Source: a virus. Taken from it: DNA of 49,477 bases. Of this stretch, positions 1-49,477 are shown one piece after another. The DNA lies in IMG/VR virus record IMGVR_UViG_3300013947_000375, positions 1 through 49,477 of that record. One strand, written 5' to 3'. The position numbers and the translations under genes are program-made. Below the pieces are notes generated by a model. The model was given only the letters and a program-made list of their open reading frames with translations, was not told the DNA's origin and made no database searches. Each line of letters starts with the position of its first letter. Within the stretch, counting starts at the first letter, position 1.

Positions 1-70
1 GGTGAGGAGTTAGTCTAAACCTCACTAATATAATAGGTGAGGAGTTAGTCTAAACCTCACTAATATAATA
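1..70. repeat. two tandem copies of a 35-bp unit GGTGAGGAGTTAGTCTAAACCTCACTAATATAATA; each unit carries the inverted half-sites GGTGAGG and CCTCAC
   Basis: read directly: 1-35 is identical to 36-70. Confidence 0.95.
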
Positions 71-199
71 GGTGAGGTCTTAACATAAAAATTACCCAAT
101 TCCTCACATATTATATTAGTGAGGTTTACATCCAAATGGTCAACTCCTCACTAATAATAAGGAAGTATTCCTAAAATTATCCCAAACTCCTCACTAATA
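71..199. repeat. dispersed copies of the same half-sites (iteron-like)
   Basis: GGTGAGG 71-77, CCTCAC 102-107, GTGAGG 119-124, CCTCACTAATA 146-156 and 189-199; CCTCAC copies at 20, 55, 102, 146, 189 are spaced 35-47 bp. Confidence 0.8.
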
Positions 200-229
200 A
201 AAATATGTAATATATAAAATATTACTATA

Positions 230-283
230 GCGGGCCAAATGGCCTCCGCCCCTGATGGGGGCTCCGGACCATTATGGACCCGC
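230..283. other. 54-nt GC-rich island with nested short hairpins, inside AT-rich non-coding DNA
   Basis: outer GCGGG/CCCGC pairing encloses GGCC-AAAT-GGCC and GCCCC-TGAT-GGGGC hairpins separated by TCC linkers; no ORF. Confidence 0.5.
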
Positions 284-353
284 AAAATGTAAAAGAGGTA
301 GGTAGTTAGTAGTTAAGAAAAAAAAGATTCTCAAACTTTCTTAGAGAAAGCCA

Positions 354-382
354 TTTACAAATCAAGAGTTATCTCTTATAAT
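354..382 (+). promoter_or_regulatory. sigma-A-type promoter, rightward
   Basis: TTTACA (354-359), 17-nt spacer, TATAAT (377-382); same consensus as the minus-strand early promoters. Confidence 0.7.
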
Positions 383-458
383 AAGAATATAAACAAAGGG
401 GGGTTCACTTCTCCCTCAACTACCAACTGACTGATTTAACTTAAGGAGGAACTTATCA

Positions 459-734
459 ATGAAGAAGCTTACTAAGAAGAACCTGGAAATTCTCAATCGC
501 CTGGTAAAGGACTACAACTCTTACTCTGAACTCGTGGCTCTCAATTATTACCGAAAGCATGAGGAAGGAATCACTCTGTGGAACCGAGGCTCTCTCAACA
601 TCATCGAAGGCTACCTGGATGAATTCGCTAAGTCCATCGGAGTGGAACTCACCTATACCCTGGGAACTCATCCTTTTCTGAACTATGAACTCGAATACAC
701 TACGGCCTCTTATACTGCCCCCTCTGTGGACTGA
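459..734 (+). CDS. hypothetical protein (91 aa)
   Basis: ORF with AAGGAGG Shine-Dalgarno 8 nt upstream of ATG. Confidence 0.7.
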   Translation: MKKLTKKNLEILNRLVKDYNSYSELVALNYYRKHEEGITLWNRGSLNIIEGYLDEFAKSIGVELTYTLGTHPFLNYELEYTTASYTAPSVD

Positions 735-822
735 GGTAAAGGAAACTATCCCCTGGATCAAGAGTCTGGGGGATTTTCTTTTGCGCCCGGATATGGTATA
801 ATAGAAGTAAGGAAGAAAGAAG

Positions 823-46945: not shown

Positions 46946-47335
46946 TTAGAATGGTGAATTAGAGATTATCTGGCCCTCTAGTATTCTTAGTATGTCCGGA
47001 GCTACCTTCCTTCTATGGGGTAAATCGGTAAGTCTCTTCCTGTGATAAGCCTTGAGCAATCTCTGACCGGGTAGTCTGTCTAAAGCCTCATCCTGTTCGT
47101 CTGTGAGATTTCGAGCTAGGTATAGTCTAGCGGCCCTAACTGTAGGGGTCTTTAATCCAGATAAAACTGCCATCCCCGAGTCCTTGTCAGAGATAACATA
47201 GGGCCACCCAGAGGGATGAGCCTTATGTATAAATAGGGTAGATCTACCCCACTGAAACTCCCCATAGGACCTAACCAGCTTCTTATACTCAATCCCTACC
47301 TCGCAGCATCTAATATAATTGTACTCCTTTTTCAT
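46946..47335 (-). CDS. hypothetical protein (129 aa)
   Basis: ORF with GGGGGTGA SD. Confidence 0.65.
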   Translation of the reverse strand: MKKEYNYIRCCEVGIEYKKLVRSYGEFQWGRSTLFIHKAHPSGWPYVISDKDSGMAVLSGLKTPTVRAARLYLARNLTDEQDEALDRLPGQRLLKAYHRKRLTDLPHRRKVAPDILRILEGQIISNSPF

Positions 47336-47395
47336 GAAGTATTCACCCCCTATTACTTATATTATATCACCAAATCTGGTAAAAAAGTCTAGTTT

Positions 47396-47965
47396 TTAGC
47401 TAGAGTAGGGATTTGGGAGTGACCAGTCCCAAAACTCAGTAGACCCCCATTCTGCTGTAAAATGGTTCCTTTCACCATCCCCAACGAAGTATAAGTACTC
47501 CTTAGGAATAACCCTACCCCCAGAGTATAGACCTACTTTTTCTTGAGTATAGGTAGTTACCACACTATTTACAATATTCACCATTCCTTGATCTACAGGG
47601 GTTGACTGGTAATAAGCCACCGCATTAGGATAGGTAACCACATCCTCGATCGTTGATCCCCAGTCCCCCTTGTCCAGGCGATTAAGGATTACCCAAACTA
47701 CTGCAGCTTGTTCCATTTCACTCTTCACCCCTCGAGCCTCAGCATACAGAACCTTGGCCATCATCTCTACTTCCTCATTAGTAAAGAGAACCGGAAGTTC
47801 TGGAGAAGTCTTTTCTTCAGGTTGATCCTCTACTATAGCCAGAGGCTCAGGCTCAGACTCAGACTCGGTGCTAATAGGACTATAGGCTCCGGTGGTAACT
47901 AGCACAAGTCCAAACAACCAAATCCAAAGAGCCAAAAATAAAGGTAAGTTAAATCTGTCTTTCAT
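47396..47965 (-). CDS. SleB/CwlJ-family cell wall hydrolase (Hydrolase_2) with N-terminal membrane anchor or signal
   Basis: MAKVLYAEARGVKSEMEQAAVVWVILNRLD matches the SleB-family core; N-terminal hydrophobic LPLFLALWIWLFGLVLV. Confidence 0.7.
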   Translation of the reverse strand: MKDRFNLPLFLALWIWLFGLVLVTTGAYSPISTESESEPEPLAIVEDQPEEKTSPELPVLFTNEEVEMMAKVLYAEARGVKSEMEQAAVVWVILNRLDKGDWGSTIEDVVTYPNAVAYYQSTPVDQGMVNIVNSVVTTYTQEKVGLYSGGRVIPKEYLYFVGDGERNHFTAEWGSTEFWDWSLPNPYSS

Positions 47966-48284
47966 CTTGCATTCTCCTTTTAGATATGTTCATAAGTTGC
48001 CTCCAATATTTAGGCATTTTATTTCTACAAATGGCCAATTCTCGTTCTGTGAGTTCTCCCCCATATTTAAGTCGAAGAGCCAGAGCAGTCATCATCTCAG
48101 CATCTACAGCCCCAAAGCCAACCCCATTATGATCAATTGTGGCCCCATAGGCTTTCTCCTCTGGGGTTTGTAAGTCGGCTATAAGGGTGATTGCCCTATA
48201 GAGAGCTTTCTTGTTGGTTCGAAGTAGATTCTGGAGATATTCTTTCCATTGGTTCTGATTTGTAAATTGTTCCCATGGCCTCAT
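47949..48284 (-). CDS. hypothetical protein (111 aa)
   Basis: ORF, ATGA-coupled to the upstream gene. Confidence 0.65.
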   Translation of the reverse strand: MRPWEQFTNQNQWKEYLQNLLRTNKKALYRAITLIADLQTPEEKAYGATIDHNGVGFGAVDAEMMTALALRLKYGGELTERELAICRNKMPKYWRQLMNISKRRMQDERQI

Positions 48285-49300
48285 TCACCATCATCTCCTG
48301 ACTGCCACTCTTCCCCTGTAACCTCTTTCCAGATTTTAGGACCAAGACCGGTCTCAATCTCATCACCATTCGATCGAATAGTCTGAACTATCTCATAGGG
48401 ACTATTTACCACGATCTCTTGACCAAATTCCTGGGAGTAAATCTCTACTAGGCCTTTACTCATTTTGATGTGGTGTCTTCCTATGTACTGAATAAGATCG
48501 AGACCCTCTATGGGAAGGGGTTCTTTCTTCCTTTTTCTAGAGGGCCTTTTTGGGAAATCCTCACTCGTTTTAAGAAGTGTTCCTATCTGAGAAGAGGGTT
48601 CCATTCCAAACTTACGATATAGAGATCTAACTTCTCTACTAGTGACTAAGGGAAACTTCTTTACTAAGTCCTTTAAGCCGTTAACCAGTCCTATCTCCCT
48701 ATGGTAGAAAATGGCTCCCTGTACTTTCCCATTTGGGCTATAGTGTTTACCAGCTGCCTCAAAGTCCTCTAGGTCAAAATCTGTATATTCCCCACTGATT
48801 TCTACAGGGGTATACTTATTCTGATTGTTCCACGAGTAAGCTTGCCCAATAGTATAGGTATTAATTTCCCCGAAAAGGTATAAAGCCAGTCCCGCCACAT
48901 CCGCAGTTACTACATTCCCGAAGCGATAGTAATATACCCCAGAATTTTTTTGATTGGTCTTTAAACCCTTCCTCTTAGATTTTTTCATTGGGGGGGTATA
49001 TTTACCCACTATTTCAAAATCTGGAGTTATTCTCAAAGAGTTATGAGGATCATAAGCCATCTGAAATTTTCCCTCTTTGAATTGAATATAAGCTCTTCCC
49101 CTCTGCTGTATAGCTCTAAAGAGATACTCATCCCAATTAGAGGACAGCCCAGGCCCTGAGAGAAGGTCCCTTTTAACTCTCCTCATTTGAAAGTCCCAGG
49201 GGTTTTCTTTACCTTCTCGAACCTCAAAGACATTACCTTCCCCAAGATCCAAAAGCTCCCACATAATTTGGTTTTTATTATATGGTATCCATTCCTTCAA
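48281..49300 (-). CDS. hypothetical protein (339 aa), first gene of the leftward early arm
   Basis: TTG start after AAAGGAG; no recognisable motif. Confidence 0.65.
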   Translation of the reverse strand: MKEWIPYNKNQIMWELLDLGEGNVFEVREGKENPWDFQMRRVKRDLLSGPGLSSNWDEYLFRAIQQRGRAYIQFKEGKFQMAYDPHNSLRITPDFEIVGKYTPPMKKSKRKGLKTNQKNSGVYYYRFGNVVTADVAGLALYLFGEINTYTIGQAYSWNNQNKYTPVEISGEYTDFDLEDFEAAGKHYSPNGKVQGAIFYHREIGLVNGLKDLVKKFPLVTSREVRSLYRKFGMEPSSQIGTLLKTSEDFPKRPSRKRKKEPLPIEGLDLIQYIGRHHIKMSKGLVEIYSQEFGQEIVVNSPYEIVQTIRSNGDEIETGLGPKIWKEVTGEEWQSGDDGE

Positions 49301-49335
49301 GAATTTCTCACTCCTTTCCTTATTAAATTAGTTAT

Positions 49336-49364
49336 ACTATATCACTATGCACTTATAATGTAAA
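49336..49364 (-). promoter_or_regulatory. first leftward early promoter
   Basis: minus strand TTTACA (49359-49364), N17, TGA-TATAGT (49336-49341). Confidence 0.65.
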
Positions 49365-49410
49365 TAGTTTTACTCTTGTATCAAGAAAATAGGTCCTTAT
49401 TAATATAATA

Positions 49411-49477
49411 GGTGAGGAGTTAGTCTAAACCTCACTAATATAATAGGTGAGGAGTTAGTCTAAACCTCACTAATATA
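49411..49477. repeat. 67-nt exact copy of nt 1-67 (direct terminal repeat or circular-assembly overlap)
   Basis: compared base by base; joining the ends without overlap would break the 35-bp period by 3 nt, whereas overlapping them is exact. Confidence 0.9.

Follow-up and report, generated by a model that had tools for sequence, protein, structure and literature searches.

The window analysed here is the whole 49,477-nt stretch of DNA held as IMG/VR record IMGVR_UViG_3300013947_000375, an uncultured phage of siphovirus type that is known from metagenomes, and it contains one true homolog of a sporulation regulator. Gene g7 (2902..3483, plus strand) encodes the effector, or DNA-binding, domain of Spo0A without the receiver domain, and it is a moron-like accessory gene with its own promoter. 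The best explanation of the data is that the window is the complete genome of a phage of gut Clostridia, most likely lytic, in which g7 is a moron-like Spo0A effector that derails sporulation of the host, and in which four other loci once tied to sporulation lie outside any sporulation programme. This explanation is held to be probable, though with some reserve. Gene identities, domain layout, the lack of lysogeny genes and the pattern of conservation are results of the analysis, and the host, the timing of expression, the DNA target and the direction of the effect on sporulation are inferred from them.

An initial annotation had described homologs of Spo0A-C, SpoIIID, a sigma factor and SleB, together with a possible exosporium-type protein, at five separate loci, and had read them as a coordinated strategy for manipulating sporulation or germination. 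All five positions are confirmed. The set consists of one strong and specific homolog (Spo0A_C), one distant homolog (SpoIIID-like) and three generic domain or fold matches; beyond Spo0A_C, the set lends little specific support to sporulation control. The coordinated strategy is not borne out, given that some of the genes are core and others accessory, and that only Spo0A_C is specific.

The Spo0A effector domain of g7 and its proposed role

All 70 open reading frames (ORFs) of the window were searched with Pfam and PHROGs for gene identification, and the sporulation families were also scored on NCBIfam (TIGR) models. Residues about 11-122 of g7 match the Spo0A effector domain model PF08769 with 123 bits (cut-off 25, E 5.8e-36) and align without gaps to the C-domain structures of Bacillus subtilis and Geobacillus stearothermophilus Spo0A (PDB 1LQ1 and 1FC3, E about 3e-31), which confirms the predicted Spo0A-C homolog. 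On the bacterial Spo0A model TIGR02875 the protein reaches 133.3 bits, below the equivalog cut-off of 200, and only model positions 143-258 of 262 are aligned. The protein begins 10 residues before the effector domain, and no Response_reg match was found in it with Pfam. In short, g7 is homologous to bacterial Spo0A along the whole effector domain, including the KPTNSEFIA motif, but lacks the receiver and phospho-acceptor Asp domain. Its recognition helix reads RVEKGIRHAIEV, versus the near-invariant RVERAIRHAIEV of the cellular proteins. The V, E, I, R, A and I of this helix are invariant across phage and cellular proteins, and g7 changes R to K and A to G.

The effector domain of g7 is followed by a tail of about 55 residues that is rich in Cys and His (residues about 140-193, 3300-3483), with the pattern C-x-C-x-H...C...C-x-C...C-x-H. 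No such tail was found in the other Spo0A_C proteins examined. In the closest relative (L096, 2990-3391) the same tail is joined to an unrelated N-terminal domain, and the tail looks like a mobile module that probably binds Zn. Small Cys-rich proteins are also encoded near g7, by g6, g11 and g18.

The nearest homologs of g7 are likewise receiver-less proteins of 127-146 aa, several being encoded on phage contigs of some 51 kb (70-94% identity), and the nearest cellular homologs are full-length Spo0A proteins of Oscillospiraceae. Over the effector domain, the identity of phage copies to any cellular Spo0A is at most 55%; between the Oscillospiraceae and B. subtilis orthologs it is 64-67%. A further phage copy, in relative L098, is only 31-39% identical to everything with which it was compared. 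Because the divergence between phage and cell exceeds that between Oscillospiraceae and Bacillus, the phage Spo0A_C is, judged by its identities, an old and fast-evolving phage lineage and not a recent capture from a host. A chromosomal receiver-less Spo0A_C paralog of 201 aa lies directly downstream of a full-length spo0A in the metagenome-assembled genome (MAG) GCA_045613985.1 (L218:8970-10606). Since a bacterial chromosome encodes such a protein, truncated Spo0A is not restricted to phages.

Directly upstream of g7 on the plus strand lies a hairpin followed by a promoter-like site of sigma-A type, TGGACA-18-TATAAT (2838..2868). The hairpin and the site TGGACA-17/18-TATAAT are kept upstream of Spo0A_C in three lineages, namely the window, L216 and L098, despite coding identity down to 37%. 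Morons that are read by host RNA polymerase typically lie behind a terminator and a promoter of their own. The g7 slot is hypervariable and is placed between a conserved early gene and the block of tRNA and terminase genes. An extended search of the genome for the promoter motif found nothing beyond the single site upstream of g7.

The same region includes the heptamer GGACAAG (2840-2846, within the -35 and hairpin region at 2838-2853), the B. subtilis SpoIIID consensus. It is kept in L216, where it lies inside the near-palindrome GTGGACAAGAGTCCAC (L216:9785-9810). Genome-wide, GGACAAG shows no enrichment (4 matches versus 7.75 expected), and the copy upstream of g7 could be a coincidence or a single site for the SpoIIID-like protein of the phage. 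The 0A boxes were counted over the whole genome as a test for self-regulation of the phi29 kind, and no enrichment was found: TGTCGAA occurs once versus 2.35 expected, and TGNCGAA occurs 10 times versus 9.6 expected.

These observations bear on the possibility that Spo0A_C, the SpoIIID-like protein, the sigma factor and a 76-aa protein with a helix-turn-helix (HTH) of sigma region-4 type only (g39, 26177..26407, plus strand; PF04545, E 3e-9) are temporal regulators of the phage itself, built on anciently recruited HTH scaffolds and having no effect on sporulation. The age and rapid divergence of the phage Spo0A_C lineage and the altered recognition helix of g7 are as expected for such proteins. 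The lack of enrichment of both 0A boxes and GGACAAG, however, leaves the phage with no visible target sites for them, and Spo0A_C homologs are restricted to phages of spore-formers in a published survey (Schwartz et al. 2023, mBio, PMC10294663). Together with the distribution of the genes among relatives, described below, this makes purely internal regulation rather unlikely as an account of the set.

For g7, action on the host is preferred. In the proposed mechanism, g7 would be transcribed by host RNA polymerase soon after infection, and its product would bind 0A-box promoters of the host independently of the phosphorelay. By occupying 0A sites without proper activation, the protein would stop or derail the Spo0A~P-dependent entry into sporulation, such that the infected cell would remain a productive vegetative host. 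The target is most plausibly host DNA, given that the genome has no excess of 0A boxes, unlike phi29. Blocked or derailed entry is favoured because the phage appears unable to lysogenise, because the dimerising receiver domain is missing, because positions that activate sigma-A are changed in g7 and because g7 has diverged beyond the range of orthologs. At the positions aligned to G227, S231, S233 and V240 of B. subtilis Spo0A, which belong to the sigma-A-activating region according to the mutational literature, g7 has I, T, K and Y.

Several points weigh against this account of g7. The changes of R to K and A to G in the recognition helix may mean that g7 binds target DNA other than the canonical 0A box. 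The sequence is compatible with premature activation of sporulation as well as with a block, with the block favoured. The isolated C-domain of B. subtilis Spo0A is reportedly active in transcription, which would favour activation. Activity of the isolated domain is also implied by ref. 24 of PMC10294663. Finally, Spo0A_C is dispensable for the clade, as it is missing from most close relatives.

The gene class, the concept and the occurrence of sporulation-regulator genes in both lytic and temperate phages have already been published. Mining of gut viromes found phage-carried spo0A truncated to the effector domain, and control of sporulation independent of signals was proposed (PMC10294663). 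As in that study, the window encodes the effector domain only, in a viral genome with terminase, portal, capsid, tail and lysis genes. The predicted hosts there are spore-forming Bacillota, and the host of the window may be of a similar kind. The truncated spo0A genes of the survey differ from g7, which bears the extra Cys/His-rich C-terminal tail, and the window adds the hypervariable moron slot, the conserved hairpin and promoter, and a closed non-temperate genome. The increments over published work are the tail rich in Cys and His, a conserved hairpin and promoter in a hypervariable slot, the strong divergence of phage from cellular Spo0A_C, and a non-temperate clade that has SpoIIID-like and Hydrolase_2 genes in its core.

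Among virulent phages, the classic exploiter of Spo0A is the Bacillus phage phi29, for which spore entrapment is described (Meijer et al. 2005, cited in PMC9429907). The window resembles it in being non-temperate and in having a biology tied to Spo0A and host sporulation, which for the window is suggested by its genes. The two differ in that phi29 encodes no Spo0A and is repressed by host Spo0A~P through its own 0A boxes, whereas the window has no 0A-box excess and encodes its own Spo0A DNA-binding domain.

If a receiver-less Spo0A does override the phosphorelay, the rate at which abundant gut Clostridia sporulate could be set by lytic phages, and the persistence of these bacteria and their transmission from person to person would be affected. 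The closed genome, the defined accessory slot and the relatives with and without Spo0A_C offer a clean comparative system for an idea that was based on surveys.

A closed genome without recognisable lysogeny genes

The first and last 77 nt of the window (1..77 and 49401-49477) are identical and consist of 2.2 copies of a 35-bp unit, as detected by Tandem Repeats Finder (TRF). The identical genome has also been assembled independently (ENA ERZ27300217, 49,494 bp); that assembly is permuted and crosses the junction with one copy of the unit, with the read-through located at L001 7100-7200. A third assembly of the genome has 49,433 bp. Because the ends are identical and the permuted assembly reads across the junction, the window is a complete genome that closes into a circle of about 49.4 kb, and the terminal copies are the overlap of a circular assembly. 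Megablast of both genome halves against 50,697 phage records found no match at the DNA level.

The two convergent arms of the initial annotation are present, with plus-strand genes at 459..27876 and minus-strand genes at 27918..49300. The arms meet near 27.9 kb, where the GC skew also changes sign. The genes that it listed for an own replicase, a primase-helicase, recombination and the nucleotide pool are all identified by Pfam or PHROGs. Its statement that the phage is non-temperate is also well supported. No integrase, serine recombinase, excisionase, CI/Cro/Xre repressor, ParA/B or protelomerase was found among the 70 ORFs with the hidden Markov models (HMMs) of Pfam and PHROGs. In relatives that share the replication arm, no lysogeny genes were found among the 27 non-shared ORFs of at least 205 aa in the portions that were fetched; the only identified products of these ORFs are tail fibres, an amidase, a Dam methylase, a phosphatase and an ADP-ribosylglycohydrolase.

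Relatives were collected by searches with the capsid, terminase, primase and SNF2 proteins, and they are overwhelmingly stand-alone contigs of 47-53 kb. Those that share the replication arm are stand-alone as well, and not embedded in host chromosomes. The sole relative embedded in a chromosome is a prophage of Emergencia timonensis SN18 (NZ_FLKM01000008.1, a 2.08-Mb contig, at about 1.75-1.79 Mb). It has only packaging and head genes in common with the window (major capsid protein, MCP, 64-67% identical; large terminase, TerL, 62%; portal, 47%), and its early region is unrelated and unidirectional.

The Emergencia prophage served as a positive control, in that the same Pfam scan finds in it a tyrosine integrase, ImmA, an Xre-type repressor and a divergent HTH_17 protein. 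Because the method detects this lysogeny module, the absence of lysogeny genes from the window is meaningful. The integrated relative was considered as a sign of temperateness and was rejected, since only packaging and head genes are common, the early region is different and the prophage has its own lysogeny module. The head module is exchanged between temperate and non-temperate genomes, and the window is of the non-temperate type. The prophage (L196:1-5900 and L195) also encodes a DUF927/Cch-type helicase and a Dam methylase, and two serine recombinases lie just upstream.

The last plus-arm gene, g41 (27277..27876), is specific to the clade and encodes a protein with a ferritin fold, as indicated by AlphaFold2 (AF2) and Foldseek. 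The model has a predicted local distance difference test (pLDDT) score of 92 and a target-normalised template modelling (TM) score of 0.84-0.89 to prokaryotic ferritins, and His and Glu residues are invariant in the family. By its modelled structure, g41 is a ferritin-like protein encoded by a phage of an anaerobe. There are 150 clusters of g41 homologs, and among the 120 listed the carrying contigs are all of at most 55.3 kb and of phage size (45-55 kb). This limit argues for a non-integrated phage, because contigs with a prophage would in some cases extend into the adjoining host DNA. On these gene contents and contig sizes, an obligately lytic phage, or at least one that does not integrate, is most likely.

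Against a lytic lifestyle it can be said that g70, which encodes 339 aa, and several other ORFs, such as g16, g32 and g6, have no annotation, and that an unrecognised lysogeny mechanism or a carrier state would be compatible with the absence of recognisable genes. The phage might then persist by a carrier state or pseudolysogeny, as an episome or through a novel recombinase, with the sporulation genes serving long-term coexistence. Such persistence would fit with the bona fide integrated prophage among the head-module relatives, and with the co-binning of related contigs with MAGs. On the other side, sensitive HMMs for integrases and recombinases find nothing, no clade contig among those listed is longer than 55 kb, the gene set is one of replication and nucleotide modification with a head-delivered toxin, and the early region of the Emergencia element is entirely different. 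We regard persistence of this kind as highly improbable.

Related contigs have been binned with Oscillospiraceae, Ruminococcus and Lachnospira-like MAGs. Because the nearest cellular Spo0A proteins are those of Oscillospiraceae and related contigs are binned there, the host is most likely a member of the gut Clostridia, from Oscillospiraceae or a related family, and it may be a spore-former.

The other four loci

If the five loci formed a set, they would be expected to occur together, and their distribution in relatives can be compared. Orthologs of the SpoIIID-like gene g62 (34-58% identity) and of the C-terminal catalytic domain of the hydrolase g68 (52-58%) are present in all relatives that share the replication arm. 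By contrast, a sigma factor in the g2 slot is missing from all eight IMG/VR relatives whose TerL is 85-95% identical, and Spo0A_C is found in one of the eight, L098, as a stand-alone protein (139 aa, 37% identity to g7) that is not accompanied by a sigma factor. The genes g40 and g41 were seen in three of the eight close relatives, among the loci that were fetched. A sibling lineage, L216/L217, which was found by way of the Spo0A_C search (TerL 95%, MCP 97%), has both the sigma factor (46%) and Spo0A_C (70%) in the same slots. Thus g62 and g68 are core genes, and g2, g7 and g40 are accessory genes that vary between strains, with g2 and g7 in variable slots near the beginning of the plus arm. 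Because the distributions differ in this way, the five genes are not a co-inherited module. The co-occurrence of sigma factor and Spo0A_C in two lineages is a lead and not evidence of coupling.

The initial annotation had offered entrapment in spores or a block on dormancy as examples of a sporulation and germination programme run by a virulent phage from all five loci. That all five genes exist, and that sigma factor and Spo0A_C occur together in the window and in L216/L217, is consistent with such a programme, and spo0A, spoIIID, sigma-factor and sleB/cwlJ genes are over-represented in phages of spore-formers (PMC10294663). However, g2, g7 and g40 are mostly missing from relatives with TerL identity of 91-95% that keep g62 and g68, L098 shows that Spo0A_C can occur without the sigma factor, and the genome lacks the 0A-box excess associated with entrapment of the phi29 kind. 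The properties of the individual proteins, which are given below, weigh on both sides, and on the whole a coordinated programme is judged quite unlikely. The same distribution also counts against Spo0A_C and the sigma factor as temporal regulators of the phage, since the core programme runs without them in most close relatives.

The SpoIIID-like gene g62 (44130..44354, minus strand) is a core early gene that encodes a divergent HTH protein of the SpoIIID family. It scores 27.0 bits on PF12116, a borderline match against the cut-off of 27 (E 4.9e-6, model positions 5-62 of 82). SpoIIID is nevertheless the top family for all nine clade orthologs, which speaks for a sporulation programme, and the best PDB match is SpoIIID itself (2L0K, E 2.4e-4 for the single sequence), with the same best match for the profile. 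On the TIGR02844 equivalog model, g62 misses widely (24.7 versus a cut-off of 111.5). The SpoIIID homolog of the initial annotation therefore stands as a family assignment at the Pfam threshold, and fails at equivalog level. Because g62 is a core gene of the clade, it is most likely a regulator of the phage's own, which is the simpler reading, and its place as a core gene within the early and replication arm supports the view that the HTH proteins serve the phage's own timing.

Gene g2 (823..1371, plus strand) encodes an accessory sigma-70-family factor with regions 2 and 4 (Pfam Sigma70_r2 and r4_2). The only sigma model that it passes is TIGR02937, for the sigma70-ECF superfamily (61 bits, cut-off 42.9), and it remains far below the models for sporulation sigma factors: 41 bits versus 234 for SigBFG, 35 versus 339 for SigE, 30 versus 252 for SigK and 21 versus 321 for SigF. 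The earlier call of a sigma factor is thus correct at the level of the superfamily, with no sporulation sigma model reached. Among 5.8 billion proteins, only three non-self homologs were found, at 37-40% identity, and the one with a genomic context that was read is on a 169-kb phage-like contig. By these scores, g2 is an orphan phage sigma factor with no affinity to SigE, SigF, SigG or SigK, which argues against a coordinated programme; its phage-borne relatives would suit a regulator of the phage's own genes. A role for g2 as a core sigma factor for late genes was considered and rejected, since the gene is missing from most close relatives.

Strictly lytic phages carry sporulation-like sigma factors, and so do temperate ones (Schwartz et al. 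2022, PMC9429907). Like the sigma factors of Bacillus phages SP10 (g120), Goe3 and the SPO1 group in that study, g2 is a phage-borne factor of the sigma-70 family; those factors cluster with SigF and SigG, whereas g2 reaches no sporulation sigma model and is nearly an orphan. Ectopic expression of phage factors similar to sigF and sigG lowers spore yield, and spoIIID, sigma factors and cwlJ/sleB are enriched in phages of spore-formers (PMC10294663).

The core gene g68 (47396..47965, minus strand), the third gene of the minus arm, encodes a Hydrolase_2 catalytic domain of SleB/CwlJ type with an N-terminal membrane anchor. It scores 27.7 on Pfam Hydrolase_2 (cut-off 27) and matches SleB 4FET over about 70 residues (E 1.2e-5). 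The YAEARG of g68 aligns with YGESRG of SleB 4FET and 4F55, and the Glu of the Y-x-E-x-R-G motif, a residue of the catalytic motif in SleB structures, is kept. This Glu and the anchor for export agree with a sporulation programme. On the SleB model TIGR02869, however, g68 has 29.1 bits against a cut-off of 236.5, with model positions 82-139 of 201 aligned, such that only the first half of the catalytic domain is covered. No PG_binding match, that is, no peptidoglycan-binding domain, was found in g68, and its N-terminus is instead the hydrophobic anchor that replaces this domain of SleB. The SleB homolog of the initial annotation is thus retained for its Hydrolase_2 catalytic domain, and not for the peptidoglycan-binding domain or the equivalog score. 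Hydrolase_2 domains are not restricted to spore-formers. The protein could be a second lysis or cell-wall enzyme, and by its domain structure it most likely handles the cell wall for the phage. A similar suggestion has been made for phage homologs of cwlJ/sleB, which may be endolysins (PMC10294663).

The candidate for the exosporium-type protein is most plausibly g40 (26547..27260, plus strand), a two-domain protein that is a fusion of two small-protein families. Its C-terminal half (about 141-237) is a jelly-roll of TNF/C1q/BclA_C type, with AF2 pLDDT of about 88-96. The fold matches are to chlamydial Pgp3-C, TNF ligands, C1q and a cyanophage fibre CBD, and BclA is outside the top 50. On the BclA_C model, g40 itself scores 17.4 (cut-off 38); of the 18 members of its family, 7 match BclA_C (best E 3.6e-7). 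Searches against PDB returned nothing for the g40 sequence and only coiled-coil noise for the family profile. No collagen-like GXX repeats were found in the sequence, unlike in BclA, and the N-terminal half comes from a separate small-protein family and is not exosporium-targeting. The exosporium-type protein is accordingly reduced to a jelly-roll of that general type, and g40 is, on its modelled fold, a TNF/C1q-type surface or adhesin-like domain. Such a generic fold is a further point against a coordinated programme.

A more elaborate form of the programme would be a multi-tier block on dormancy by a lytic phage. In such a toolkit, a constitutive Spo0A domain, possibly dimerised or targeted by its Zn tail, would act together with the co-occurring sigma factor, the core SpoIIID-family regulator and an early exported hydrolase of cortex-lytic type. 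If true, it would be the first case of a virulent phage that controls sporulation in layers, at several developmental stages at once; it is considered decidedly improbable. The preferred explanation remains that g7 derails sporulation and that the other four loci serve the phage in other ways.

Other features of the two arms

The divergent intergenic region between the first genes of the two arms, g70 on the minus strand (48281..49300) and g1 on the plus strand, contains an array of motifs of the type CCTCACTAATATAAT, which lies at 20..203 and continues at 49395-49444 across the junction. Counted in both orientations, there are seven matches to this type versus 0.67 expected, all between the arms and none elsewhere in the genome. 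The array could represent iterons, operators or early promoters. The product of g70 has no match in Pfam, PHROGs, NCBIfam or PDB.

The plus arm encodes a dCMP deaminase (g4, 1617..2147; PF00383, E 5.8e-22), followed after g7 by a cluster of tRNA genes for Met, Gly, Gln and Leu (3615..4021; ARAGORN and Rfam). The Rfam scan of the genome found tRNAs only. The head and tail genes, identified by Pfam, begin with the small and large terminase subunits (4291..6409; Terminase_2, and Terminase_3 with 3C, of PBSX type) and an SPP1-type portal (6601..8130). They continue with a MuF-like minor head protein fused to an ADP-ribosyltransferase toxin domain (10955..12607; PF04233 and PF03496), the major capsid protein (14084..15124; Phage_cap_E), which was an anchor for finding relatives, and the tape-measure protein (18056..20659; PF10145). 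Scaffold, tail tube and distal tail proteins are also encoded in this arm (Pfam and PHROGs), as is a lysis cassette of a Hol44-type holin and an Amidase_2/PG_binding_1 endolysin (24258..25371).

The minus arm encodes the replication genes, which were assigned with Pfam unless noted. These include a SNF2-family helicase (29354..30901), recombination genes for DUF669, an AAA_24 ATPase and a PD-(D/E)XK nuclease (31774..34396), and a family A DNA polymerase (PolA) with a 3'-5' exonuclease and an N-terminal domain similar to uracil-DNA glycosylase (UDG; 34634..37081). They are followed by genes for nucleotide modification or the nucleotide pool (37081..39699; Pfam and PHROGs), which comprise a thymidylate synthase (TS)-like protein, phrog_34294, dUTPase_2 and a dNMP kinase, by a primase-helicase (39745..41709; RepB_primase prim-pol and AAA_25) and by ThyX (42465..43133). 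An HD protein and a protein with an Nlig-Ia domain are further encoded in this arm. The last two minus-arm genes, g42 and g43 (27918-28890), have a basic motif in common at the C-terminus, KAR+LLR...RP..G.W+W..K+D, and their only matches are to PHROG families without an assigned function.

An ADP-ribosylglycohydrolase is present in two fragments in the window (45170..45708, minus strand; Pfam) and is intact, with 339 aa, in the relative L183 (4906-5925). The ADP-ribosyltransferase domain on the MuF protein is of the cargo type that is ejected from the head, and the two enzymes may be a pair of toxin and reversal enzyme.

A gene set of the kind that goes with hypermodified DNA bases is distributed over both arms (1617-2147, 9194-9892, 30885-31469, 34634-39699 and 42465-43681). 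Its members are the dCMP deaminase, the TS-like protein, which is of hydroxymethylase type, ThyX, dUTPase_2, the dNMP kinase and the PolA with its UDG-like N-terminus, together with a DUF1599 ('nucleotide modification associated') protein, the HD protein and an ORF with weak similarity to glucosyltransferases.

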